Positions 43,982 through 46,168 of a stretch of DNA of 64,000 nt are shown piece by piece (positions within the stretch are counted from its first letter, which is position 1; each line of letters starts with the position of its first letter). Source of the stretch: an uncultured SAR86 cluster bacterium (lineage in GTDB: Bacteria; Pseudomonadota; Gammaproteobacteria; Magnimaribacterales; D2472). Where the stretch lies: positions 37,600 to 101,599 of the forward strand of contig CACBQK010000001.1 of NCBI GenBank assembly GCA_902541365.1, read 5' to 3'. Under the pieces are notes generated by a model. It saw only the letters and a list, made by a program, of their open reading frames with translations. It made no database searches and was not told the origin of the DNA. The translations under genes were made by a program, and so were the position numbers.

Positions 43982-46168
43982 TTATTGGGCTGCGAACTCA
44001 ACTGCTTGATTAACATCAACAGAGACGACTCTGGAAACACCAGCTTCTTGCATTGTAACTCCCATTAGGTGGTCACTTTTTTCCATTGATACCTTGTTAT
44101 GGGTTATAAAAATAAACTGAATTTTCTTTGACATTTCTTCAACCATATTGATAAATCTTGAAGTATTTAGATCATCAAGCGGTGCATCAACTTCATCGAG
44201 TAGGCAAAAAGGTGCAGGATTTAATTCAAACAAAGCAAAGACTAAAGCTAAAGCGGTCATAGCCTTTTCTCCACCAGATAACTGCGAAAGAGTCGAATTC
44301 TTTTTACCTGGTGGGCGAGCCATAAGCTTAACACCAGCATTTAGGAAGTTATTATCAGTAAGAGATAACTCTGCATTACCTCCTCCAAACATTATTGGGA
44401 AGATAGATTTCAATCTTTTATTTACTGCATCAAAACTCTCAATAAATTTTTCTTTAGTCTCTTTATCGATTTGTGAAATGGCCTTGTTTAACTTCTCCAG
44501 TGCTTCTTCTAAGTCTTCATTTTGCTTATCCAACTCATCTTTTCTTTTTCTCTCCTCAGCAATTTCATCTGGAGCTGCTAAATTGATGGCACCCAATCTG
44601 ATAATTTTAGATCTAATGGTCTCAAGTTCCGATTGAAGTTCTTCTATCGATAAATCTTGATAGTTGGATCTGTCAATATCATTAATATCAATTCCCGATT
44701 CAGATATTCTTTTCGATGAATTTTCAAGATGAACACTGTGAGAACTTATTTCAATTTTTGTATCGGTGATTTTTTCCTGAATTGCTTTAAGATCCAATAG
44801 GGAAACACTTTTTTCATTTTCCAATCTTCTTATTTCTGCATCTACTTCTTGTTGGTCTTTTCTAATAGAATTTAACTCAGCTTCTGCTGAGGCACTTATC
44901 TCTATAAGCTCTTGAAGTTTTGTAGAAATTTCTTTTGAGCTTTGCGTTGTTTTCTTAAGTTCTGTTTCTAGGTTTTCTTGCTGGTTCAGATACTCATCGC
45001 TAATTTCTTTGGACTGTCTGAGAACAATATTGAATATGCTAAGCAATATATCTTTAAGTTGTTCTGCTTTGCTTTTGATTTCAGGAATAGAGATTTTAGA
45101 GATAATTTCATCTATTAAGTGAAGAGCCTTCTCTTTGGGAGACAAGTTTTCAAAATCTGAAGCTTTTTCAAGAGCATCTTCATAAGCCGCTTTTACTCTC
45201 TCAAGTTCTCTCGTCGTATTATCTTTGGTTGTTCTAATATTTTGAAGATTCTGTTCAAACCTCGCTATTTCTGACCCAACCTCATAAAACTTTTTTTGCG
45301 CATCTTCATATTTTGAAAGAACTGATTCATGCTCTGTTTTGTATTGATCAAGCTTAGCTTGCTTTACTGAAACTTCTGACTCTTTTACAGACTCGTCCTT
45401 TTGAAGCGCTGCGAGATTATTATTCAAAAGATCTCTTTTATCTCTGGCATCAAGAGAAAACAGGATAGCAACATTCAACTCTTTTTCTTTTTCTTGATTT
45501 TTATAATCTTTGTATCTATCAGCAGCTTTAGCCTGGCTTTCTAATCTTCTTATCAATCTTCCAATCTCATCCCTGATGTCATTGACTCTAGATAAGTTTT
45601 CCTTTGTCTTTTTTATTCTGGTTTCTGTTTCCTTTCTTCTCTCTCTATATTTTGAAACCCCTGCAGCCTCTTCGATGTGTGTTCTTAAGTCTTCAGGCTT
45701 TGCACTTACCAAAGAGGAAACCATTCCTTGCTCGATAATTGCATAACTGCTTGGGCCAAGCCCTGTTCCAAGAAAAATATCCTGAACATCTTTCCTTCTA
45801 CACTTAGTGTTATTGATGTAATAACTTGATTGACTGTCTCTAGTCATGACTCTTTTTACGGATATCTCATTGAAAGCTGCATACTCGCCTCCTACTTTTC
45901 CACTTGAGTTATCAAATAAAAGTTCGATACTACACTGCCCAGATGGCTTTCTTTGCTCAGATCCATTAAAAATGACATCTGACATTGAGTCGCCTCTAAG
46001 ATTTTTTGCTGAGAGTTCACCAAGCACCCATCTGACAGCATCAATAATATTAGATTTTCCACATCCATTTGGACCTACAACAGCTACCATATTTGTTGGG
46101 AAAGATATCCTCGTGGGATCCACGAAACTTTTGAAACCAGCCAATTTAATGTGCTTAAGCTGCATCAA
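43982..46168 (-). CDS. smc: SMC-family chromosome segregation ATPase, unusually short (728 aa) and without recognisable hinge
   Basis: The N-head has FKSF and [20 protein letters not shown]. The C-head has [37 protein letters not shown] and ITHNK. The region between residues about 170 and 520 is heptad-rich only. Confidence 0.85.
   Translation of the reverse strand: [728 protein letters not shown]

Follow-up and report, generated by a model that had tools for sequence, protein, structure and literature searches.

The hinge is regarded as a part that all SMC proteins have and that is central to their mechanism; it has been assigned roles in dimerisation and DNA entry and, in more recent work, that of a gate for bypassing obstacles (PMC12647877). 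Bacillus subtilis can grow with an Smc whose hinge has been exchanged for a Rad50 zinc hook, indicating that the hinge fold as such is dispensable, and Smc with shortened arms works at particular arm lengths (PMC5344682). According to the same study, the distribution of arm lengths among natural SMC proteins has more than one peak, one of them a minor mode near 163 aa. An oceanic 'hinge-less SMC' cluster has been described by Sussfeld et al. (2025, Environ Microbiome 20:65; PMC12153180; preprint January 2024). By definition it had less than 34.9% similarity to any entry of nr (March 2020), and its members do not co-occur with a regular SMC in single-cell genomes. That paper mentions neither SAR86 nor Gammaproteobacteria and contains no synteny, arm-length classes or duplications. 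With hinge-less oceanic SMCs already in print, the novelty of encountering another one is limited. What appear to be new in our analysis are the host (SAR86), the orthology, the series of arm lengths and the regrowth of the arms; a literature search for SAR86 together with either ScpB or the hinge returned nothing relevant.

SAR86 is among the most abundant bacterial groups of the surface ocean. We analysed a window of 64,000 nucleotides from an uncultured member of this group, and the gene on which we focus is, judging from its sequence, the smc orthologue of a SAR86 gammaproteobacterium, coding for the bacterial condensin ATPase.

The smc locus and the ATPase head

The smc gene occupies positions 43985..46165 of the window on the minus strand, as do all other features given below, and its stop codon lies at 43982-43984. 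The uninterrupted ORF (43982..46168) begins mechanically at TTG 46168, one codon before ATG 46165. The latter is most likely the true start, because all relatives begin with MQLK, and counted from it the protein has 727 aa. The initial annotation had described an intact ORF of 728 aa; the integrity of the frame stands, and the length is corrected by this choice of start. It had also placed the gene in the gammaproteobacterial smc-zipA-ligA position, and this is indeed what we find. Directly downstream, with no intergenic spacer, smc is abutted by zipA (43418..43981), a miniaturised form of 187 aa recognised by ZipA_C at 1.1e-11, which in turn is abutted by ligA for NAD-dependent DNA ligase (41396..43417). 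Canonical Smc of other gammaproteobacteria is encoded at the same genomic position. In SAR86, zipA lies downstream of smc in all loci encoding the 727-, 732- and 995-aa forms, and the smc-zipA-ligA order together with upstream ccmH is common to the hinge-less classes. The neighbours of smc in the window are housekeeping genes.

The N-terminal half of the ATPase head (residues 1-170, 45656..46165) contains Walker A (GPNGCGKS, residues 31-38, 46052-46075) and the Q-loop (residue 146, 45722-45739). The C-terminal neck and head half, supported by Pfam and PDB sequence matches (residues 532-727, 43985..44572), contains the signature LSGGEKA (residues 629-635, 44261-44281), the Walker B/D-loop segment (residues 655-664, 44174-44203) and the H-loop with H689 (44093-44107). 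These motifs of an SMC-type ABC-ATPase, which had been called textbook from the outset, are all present, including the catalytic glutamate of Walker B, and are invariant across the length classes. Pfam SMC_N matches the protein at 5.7e-61. Across the 727/732/995 classes, 81% of the positions in the N-terminal head half are at least 95% conserved, and the highly conserved neck, formed by the first ~45 residues of the N-terminal arm, matches the head with 78%.

With the TIGR02168 model (SMC_prok_B) the protein reaches 837 bits in two stretches, the cutoff being 567.35, and the best PDB sequence matches are the Smc heads of B. subtilis and Geobacillus (E about 1e-107), including the ScpA-bound B. 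subtilis head (5xg3/3zgx). Membership in other SMC-like families is excluded. The recN equivalog TIGR00634 reaches only 47.6 bits of the 407.85 needed, and the ASRP model NF045487 only 74.4 of 300. Rad50 models give at most 52 bits against cutoffs of 700-1087, and a Rad50-type zinc hook is excluded by the absence of CXXC and of any cysteine between residues 123 and 653 (cysteines are found at residues 35, 78, 122 and 654 only, none of them in the apex). Among defence SMC-like ATPases the best score is that of mad3 (213.8 bits, head only), followed by LmuB (76) and JetC (35); these weak or head-only scores, and a housekeeping neighbourhood in place of a defence-island context, exclude this affiliation as well. 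Of the properties that characterise a bacterial Smc, the protein has the head motifs, a TIGR02168 score above cutoff, a joint-bearing arm and the orthologous locus, and it lacks the hinge.

Arms and apex in place of the hinge

We aligned the protein to a reference profile of 1167 positions built from 60 canonical gammaproteobacterial SMCs. Residues 1-349 fall on profile positions 1-350, and profile positions 822-1166 are covered by residues 382-726. Because the alignment jumps from position 350 to 822, some ~471 central positions, representing the hinge and each arm's distal half, are missing, and about 32-47 residues stand in their place. The Pfam SMC_hinge model (PF06470) has no match in the 727-aa protein even at E<=10, and the same model detected the hinges of its positive controls, a 1165-aa SMC and three other short SMCs. 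The hinge match that the initial annotation had named as a refutation of its reading did not appear. A hinge that has diverged past recognition is ruled out, since the about 32-47 residues between the arms leave no room for it. Thus, the initial annotation was right in proposing that the hinge domain is absent and that the arms are roughly half of the usual length, a point on which the profile alignment and the AlphaFold2 (AF2) model agree. Its smaller observations hold too: the two prolines of the apex are P343 and P361, and GG, said to be missing from about residue 94 up to the C-terminal head, occurs only at residues 92, 594/595 and 631.

In the AF2 model the N-terminal arm (residues 171-339, 45149..45655; about 25 nm) is made of helices 171-278 and 280-339, and the C-terminal arm helix comprises residues 361-489 (44699..45085), both with pLDDT of 80-90. 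Together they form a long antiparallel coiled coil with a head-proximal joint, about half as long as the canonical one. The apex in the hinge's place (residues 340-386, 45008..45148) includes the 16-residue helix 342-357 and the 3-residue turn that link the two arm helices (turn ISI-P, 358-361), as well as the hydrophobic start of the C-terminal arm. At the other end of this arm lies the Smc 'joint' described previously (PMC5526789), a head-proximal interruption of the coiled coil that is seen in the model as a pattern of a loop and short helices (residues 490-531, 44573..44698) and is closed by the junction motif LGAINLAAP (44570-44596). In the model, the protein folds into a ~25 nm coiled-coil hairpin with a short helix and a turn at its tip. 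The best fold match of the full-length model is 5XEI, which consists of the Smc head, coiled coil and joint. The TM-scores of the fold search are low because the heads are poorly modelled; in the AF2 models of both the 727-aa and the 995-aa form the heads are of low confidence, the alignment being shallow.

The whole smc gene, arms and apex included, is under strong purifying selection, with dN/dS of 0.034-0.088 for the entire gene and 0.04-0.12 for the apex. The apex has the highest hydrophobic density within the arms (0.40-0.53) and no glycine. Within the 727/732/995 group it forms an island of conservation, with 31% of conserved positions vs 8-9% in the flanking arm. Its sequence differs between the major hinge-less classes.

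How an Smc without a hinge might work

We consider it quite probable that the protein is an Smc orthologue that lost the hinge by an in-frame central deletion and that operates by the following mechanism. The deletion would have removed the entire hinge and the distal half of each arm, with the complete and strongly constrained ABC-ATPase head, the neck and the joint being kept, and the product would still be an SMC-kleisin organiser of DNA that is driven by ATP. A pair of hairpins would be joined by ATP-dependent engagement of the heads, a ScpA-type kleisin, the presence of which is our assumption, would bridge neck and cap, and arm-arm (rod) contacts would also hold the hairpins together. 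A small hydrophobic helical contact between the two apices would most likely replace the hinge, closing a ring of half the size. As to the kleisin complex, neither ScpA nor ScpB was found by a motif scan of the window and of 80 SAR86 loci (1.65 Mb of smc-flanking DNA), translated in all six frames, or by Pfam scans of 20 ORFs of the window. Because every central deletion makes a new apex, the apex would be expected to represent a lineage-specific cap and not a conserved domain. That apex sequences of the major hinge-less classes are unlike each other argues against one dedicated dimerisation module. On the other side of the argument, the conserved hydrophobic island at the apex, as read from the sequences, fits an apex contact. 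The initial annotation had reasoned that a protein with heads and no hinge would have to dimerise in another way, by a RecN- or Rad50-like apex or through a different architecture, and this reasoning is logically sound. RecN dimerises via its coiled-coil tips, and the SAR86 protein may have a RecN-like contact at the tip of its coiled coil.

It is distinctly less likely, though deserving of attention, that the apices do not dimerise at all. The hairpins would then be independent and the complex would be held at the heads alone, by the ATP sandwich and the kleisin, serving as a DNA clamp or a segment-capture device without a closed ring lumen. Such an arrangement would agree with the AF2 model, in which the apex is merely a helix and a turn, with the variation of the apex sequence by hinge-less class, which is expected if each central deletion makes a new turn, and with the finding that the nature of the dimerisation domain is uncritical in B. 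subtilis (PMC5344682). However, the apex of the 727/732/995 group is hydrophobic and conserved beyond the needs of a simple turn, and every functional B. subtilis construct in that study still had a dimerisation domain.

We find it improbable that the protein has been repurposed for RecN-like tethering in DNA repair or for another non-condensin role, with the chromosome organised by other means. The combination of a head and a short coiled coil without a hinge does resemble RecN and ASRP-type proteins, and Sussfeld et al. speculate on a different function for hinge-less SMCs (PMC12153180). Nonetheless, it is the SMC equivalog cutoff that the protein passes and the recN, Rad50 and ASRP cutoffs that it fails, it occupies the orthologous smc locus, and it has kept a highly conserved joint and neck. 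Moreover, no second SMC was seen in our searches, which covered less than complete SAR86 genomes.

Finally, an assembly artefact (a collapsed repetitive coiled coil) or a decaying pseudogene, favoured solely by the unusual length and by the fact that single-cell and metagenome assemblies may collapse repeats, can be rejected with near certainty. The same 727-aa length recurs in at least seven independent SAR86 single-cell genomes and in a 960-member metagenomic cluster, and the identical length is found in MAGs and hundreds of contigs. Sliding-fragment BLAST of the 727-aa form against itself revealed no internal repeats that could have collapsed, so the repeat collapse that had been named as a possible refutation of the hinge-less reading did not materialise. 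Hinge-less forms of other classes are found on long polished contigs (1.14 Mb in one case, L034, and a 1.30 Mb chromosome, L055, in the other). A dN/dS of 0.03-0.09 and intact ATPase motifs are in line with the original impression that the gene is not an obvious pseudogene.

Length classes in SAR86 and comparison with known systems

Hinge-less SMCs are found at the same locus in every SAR86 lineage sampled, and the loss of the hinge is a trait of the whole SAR86 clade. The proteins fall into length classes of 727, 732, ~810, ~930 and 995 aa. In a tree of the heads the hinge-less forms group beside canonical gammaproteobacterial SMCs. The topology (727,(732,995)), in which the 995-aa class is nested within the ~730-aa classes, has 100% bootstrap support (NJ). 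When the ~930-aa class is included, the hinge-less forms are monophyletic with only 47% support, so that the hinge may have been lost once or several times. In the 995-aa class, sliding-fragment BLAST identified self-matches offset by 120 aa in the N-terminal arm and by 143 aa in the C-terminal arm, with E down to 2e-18. The extra segments align to canonical profile positions 218-341 and 819-978, a relic of the head-junction motif (LGSINLASPDEY) is found mid-arm, and a relic joint is present in the AF2 model. A ~730-aa form gave rise to the 995-aa class through a single tandem duplication in each arm, and these duplications re-lengthened the arms. Because the arms have been regrown by these duplications, the class provides an example arguing for selection on arm length.

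It is tempting to speculate that SAR86 lost the hinge independently of the published cluster labelled Actinomycetes, so that the loss would be convergent in streamlined, tiny marine cells. SAR86 would then offer a natural allelic series, in which only the hinge is gone at ~930 aa, the arms are shorter at ~810 and ~730 aa, and at 995 aa they are re-lengthened by paired duplications with a second joint-like, elbow-like discontinuity, each new apex having evolved its own minimal hydrophobic dimer contact. We give this scenario, taken as a whole, slightly less than an even chance. If it is true, a housekeeping SMC can do without a closed hinge gate, and the selected variable is arm length and not the hinge. 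The published cluster and the SAR86 SMC are both abundant marine SMC homologues annotated as COG1196, and the architecture reported for the former (a head, an antiparallel coiled coil, no hinge, no CXXC, abundance in the ocean) is also that of the SAR86 protein. However, the cluster bears the class label Actinomycetes and branches with actinobacterial seeds (PMC12153180), whereas SAR86 is a gammaproteobacterium. We infer that the cluster is a separate lineage, plausibly Ca. Actinomarinales, a distinction drawn from the taxonomy label and the divergence criterion.

An Smc that sits at the orthologous locus under purifying selection, has no hinge and differs in arm length between sister lineages amounts to a natural experiment on the function of the hinge. 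The forms of 727, 732, 810, 930 and 995 aa are ready constructs with which the effects of arm length and of apex closure on loop extrusion can be studied. In addition, a phenomenon previously reported solely as an unplaced metagenomic cluster gains a firm host and genomic context.

Compared with canonical Smc of the B. subtilis type (~1170-1190 aa), the SAR86 protein has an orthologous head (~50% identity to that of B. subtilis), neck, joint and proximal arm, but it has no hinge (about 190 aa) and is ~140 aa shorter in each arm, leaving an arm of about 25 nm vs the canonical ~49 nm (PMC5526789). It can be seen as nature's counterpart of the Mini-Smc and Smc(zinc-hook) proteins engineered in B. 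subtilis (Bürmann et al. 2017, PMC5344682), which have shortened arms or an unrelated dimeriser instead of the hinge, and its ~170-aa arms are close to the 163-aa natural mode. Those constructs kept a dedicated dimerisation domain, whereas the SAR86 SMC has only a 16-residue helix and a turn, and its hinge-less state is natural, fixed and clade-wide. RecN, Rad50/SbcC and archaeal ASRPs share with it an ABC-ATPase head together with an antiparallel coiled coil that lacks an SMC hinge. The SAR86 protein, however, scores far below the cutoffs of these families, has no CXXC and retains the SMC-specific joint and junction motif.

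The smc gene and its missing hinge

The ORF at 43982..46168 (minus strand), described in the initial annotation as encoding a hinge-less SMC of 728 aa, is indeed uninterrupted. Its length needs a small correction: the mechanical call opened at TTG 46168, but the true start is almost certainly ATG 46165, because MQLK opens every relative, and the product is thus 727 aa long. All catalytic motifs of the canonical SMC head were found intact, Pfam SMC_N matches residues 4-712 (5.7e-61), and the NCBIfam Smc equivalog TIGR02168 scores 837 bits, in two stretches, against a cutoff of 567. 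Among solved structures, the Smc heads of B. subtilis and Geobacillus, ScpA-bound forms included, are closest in sequence (E ~1e-107). Other identities were rejected: RecN (47.6 bits; recN model cutoff 407.85), Rad50 (~52 bits; cutoffs 700-1087), archaeal ASRP (74.4 bits; cutoff 300) and defence SMC-like proteins, whose PADLOC models match through generic head similarity only. The proposed smc-zipA-ligA order holds, zipA and then ligA following smc without intergenic spacers, and ccm genes lie upstream. Since this neighbourhood is also kept in other SAR86 length classes, the gene represents the orthologous smc locus.

The neighbours have their own peculiarities. The zipA gene (43418..43981, minus strand; ZipA_C 1.1e-11) is miniaturised, its 187-aa product having a membrane anchor at the N-terminus and, at residues 58-173, the FtsZ-binding domain ZipA_C; E. 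coli ZipA has ~330 aa and a long linker. Between smc and ccmH there is a 259-aa ORF (46201..46980, minus strand) that has no Pfam match, is kept upstream of smc in all 727-, 732- and 995-aa class SAR86 loci, and may be the CcmI-like component of cytochrome c maturation. Elsewhere in the window, a stand-alone HNH endonuclease ORF of 190 aa (10893..11465, minus strand; HNH_5, 5.3e-15) is surrounded by housekeeping genes in a streamlined genome.

The Pfam SMC_hinge model has no match in the window protein even at E<=10, yet its sensitivity suffices: it recovers the hinge of a 1165-aa control and those of three unrelated SMCs with short arms (P0198, P0218 and P0234; 990, 1003 and 1071 aa). On a canonical profile built from 60 gammaproteobacterial SMCs (1167 positions, hinge roughly at 500-695), residues 1-349 correspond to positions 1-350 and residues 382-726 to positions 822-1166, so that ~32 residues substitute for ~471 central positions, which cover the hinge together with the distal half of each arm. 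The AlphaFold2 model, computed from an 18-sequence alignment, is good for the arms (pLDDT 80-90) and poor for the heads. The N-terminal arm is a helix at 171-339. After a break come the 16-residue apex helix at 342-357 and a 3-residue turn, then the C-terminal arm helix at 361-489, a loop/short-helix pattern of the Smc-joint type at 490-531 and a neck helix at 532-593. Its top PDB fold match is 5XEI (Smc head, coiled coil and joint). From these helices the arm measures ~169 residues or ~25 nm, bearing out the half-length estimate; the B. subtilis Smc arm is ~49 nm (PMC5526789). The two prolines reported for the apex (residues 340-386) are present, GG is indeed absent between residues 93 and 594, and Cys is missing from the stretch between 123 and 653.

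Could the short gene be an artefact or a pseudogene? The host organism is SAR86, and the protein recurs at 94-99% identity: at least seven independent single-cell genomes carry it, as do MAGs and a metagenomic cluster with 960 sequences. Another 727-aa lineage shares only 71% identity. The collapsed-repeat assembly raised in the initial annotation is excluded by this recurrence in independent genomes and by the absence of internal repeats that could collapse. Nor is the gene a pseudogene, as anticipated: the ORF and motifs are intact, and dN/dS against three close relatives is low, both for the whole gene (0.074, 0.088 and 0.034) and for the apex (0.04-0.12).

Length classes and re-grown arms in SAR86

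The survey of SMC lengths suggested earlier, applied here to SAR86-type proteins from 80 GTDB species loci and from three protein searches, revealed discrete classes: 727 aa (nine sequences, namely eight GTDB loci and the window), 732 aa (22 loci), 736 aa (a single representative), 808-810 aa (15 loci), 827 aa (a single representative), 928-933 aa (>100 protein clusters) and 995 aa (at least 28 loci). None has a hinge according to hinge-model search and precomputed Pfam annotation. Hinge loss is thus a clade-wide SAR86 trait accompanied by discrete arm lengths. Among the nearest 150 representatives of 50%-identity clusters (library of 1.8 billion proteins), nearly all those not of SAR86 type have 1140-1180 aa. 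The ~930-aa form is colinear with the canonical profile at positions 1-489 and 696-1158, and is therefore missing the hinge alone; the loss is larger in the 810/827-aa forms and greatest in the ~730-aa forms. The ~930-aa class (L080:715-3498, a SAR86 contig locus, and proteins P0391-P0509), found on many contigs, appears to retain near full-length arms; at the L080 locus ligA lies downstream and zipA was not detected. Several SAR86 SMCs (P0035, P0332, P0033, P0354) carry misleading public names such as 'recombination protein RecF [Flavobacteriales bacterium]', 'hypothetical protein [Prochlorococcus sp.]' and 'AAA family ATPase', probably reflecting mis-binning and failed naming rules that depend on length or hinge.

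In a neighbour-joining tree of head domains (415 columns, 500 bootstraps), the SAR86 hinge-less clade has 84% support, and both the 727+732+995 grouping and the sister relationship of 732 and 995 have 100%. The ~930-aa class joins the clade with only 47%, so the tree allows either one hinge loss or several. The three hinge-bearing short-armed SMCs are scattered among canonical gammaproteobacterial SMCs, indicating independent arm shortenings with the hinge kept.

Compared with the ~730-aa forms, the 995-aa class has two additional blocks, 120 aa in the N-terminal arm and 143 aa in the C-terminal arm. In fragment self-BLAST both are tandem duplicates of adjacent arm sequence (E down to 2e-18), and such repeats are absent from the 727- and 732-aa forms. 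The extra segments map to canonical positions 218-341 and 819-978, not to distal-arm positions, and in the extra C-terminal copy the head-junction motif survives as a relic, LGSINLASPDEY. The duplications roughly double the arm, as in P0022 (L055:10001-12985), an example of the 995-996-aa form. In the AlphaFold2 model of the 996-aa protein, the extra C-terminal copy also has a relic joint at 615-656 facing a break in the N-terminal arm at the relic apex (335-342); together they create an elbow-like mid-arm discontinuity in an arm of ~41 nm. Because the 995-aa class is nested within the ~730-aa classes, the direction of change is from short to long, an argument for selection on arm length. This reading fits the multimodal distribution of natural SMC arm lengths and the length dependence of engineered Mini-Smc function (PMC5344682).

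The apex and a possible mode of action

In the window Smc the ATPase head is intact and constrained, the neck is as well conserved as the head (positions at least 95% conserved: 81% of the head, 78% of the neck), the joint is kept, and the coiled coil forms a short hairpin. Across the 727/732/995 group the apex stands out as an island of conservation (31% of positions, versus 8-9% in the flanking arm), and its hydrophobic density (0.40-0.53) is the highest of the whole arm (0.13-0.33 elsewhere). This exceeds the needs of a bare turn. The protein probably still acts as a DNA organiser of the Smc-kleisin type, its lumen half the usual size. The complex would be held at the heads by ATP and a presumed kleisin and by contacts along the arms, with a small helical contact between apices as a probable addition. 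A precedent is the Rad50 zinc hook, which B. subtilis tolerates in place of the hinge (PMC5344682). ScpAB genes were found neither in the window nor, for any SAR86 locus examined, in the neighbourhood of smc. The main alternative is a complex joined at the heads only, with free apices. In its favour, the apex is not conserved from one class to another: apart from a helix-capping [SN]-P, the sequences are unrelated. A single in-frame central deletion would trim both hairpin strands together and produce a new apex every time, which would account for this divergence.

Hinge-less and channel-less SMCs

Taken together, our sequence comparisons confirm the initial observation and support its interpretation: the window protein is a real, functional, hinge-less and short-armed Smc orthologue fixed across SAR86. 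In the literature we found nothing relevant on the SMC hinge or ScpB in SAR86. Natural hinge-less SMCs as such have already been published, and the SAR86 case is not the first. Sussfeld et al. 2025 (PMC12153180; preprint January 2024) described an abundant monophyletic oceanic "hinge-less SMC" cluster with head and coiled coil, lacking hinge and CXXC, which does not co-occur with regular SMC in GORG-Tropics single-cell genomes. Its authors assigned it to class Actinomycetes, to which Ca. Actinomarinales belongs in NCBI taxonomy, defined it by a similarity of <34.9% to any nr entry (March 2020) and mentioned neither SAR86 nor Gammaproteobacteria. From this description and taxonomy we infer a lineage distinct from the SAR86 SMCs. 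What appears to be new here is the SAR86 host, the orthology proved by synteny, the evidence of selection, the arm-length series and the re-lengthening by paired duplication. A hinge-less Smc in SAR86 should surprise SMC specialists and is tractable by experiment. According to a recent study (PMC12647877), the hinge channel serves as a gate in obstacle bypass, and arms tend to be longer in SMCs whose hinges lack a channel; the SAR86 SMC goes in the opposite direction, making it an informative exception.
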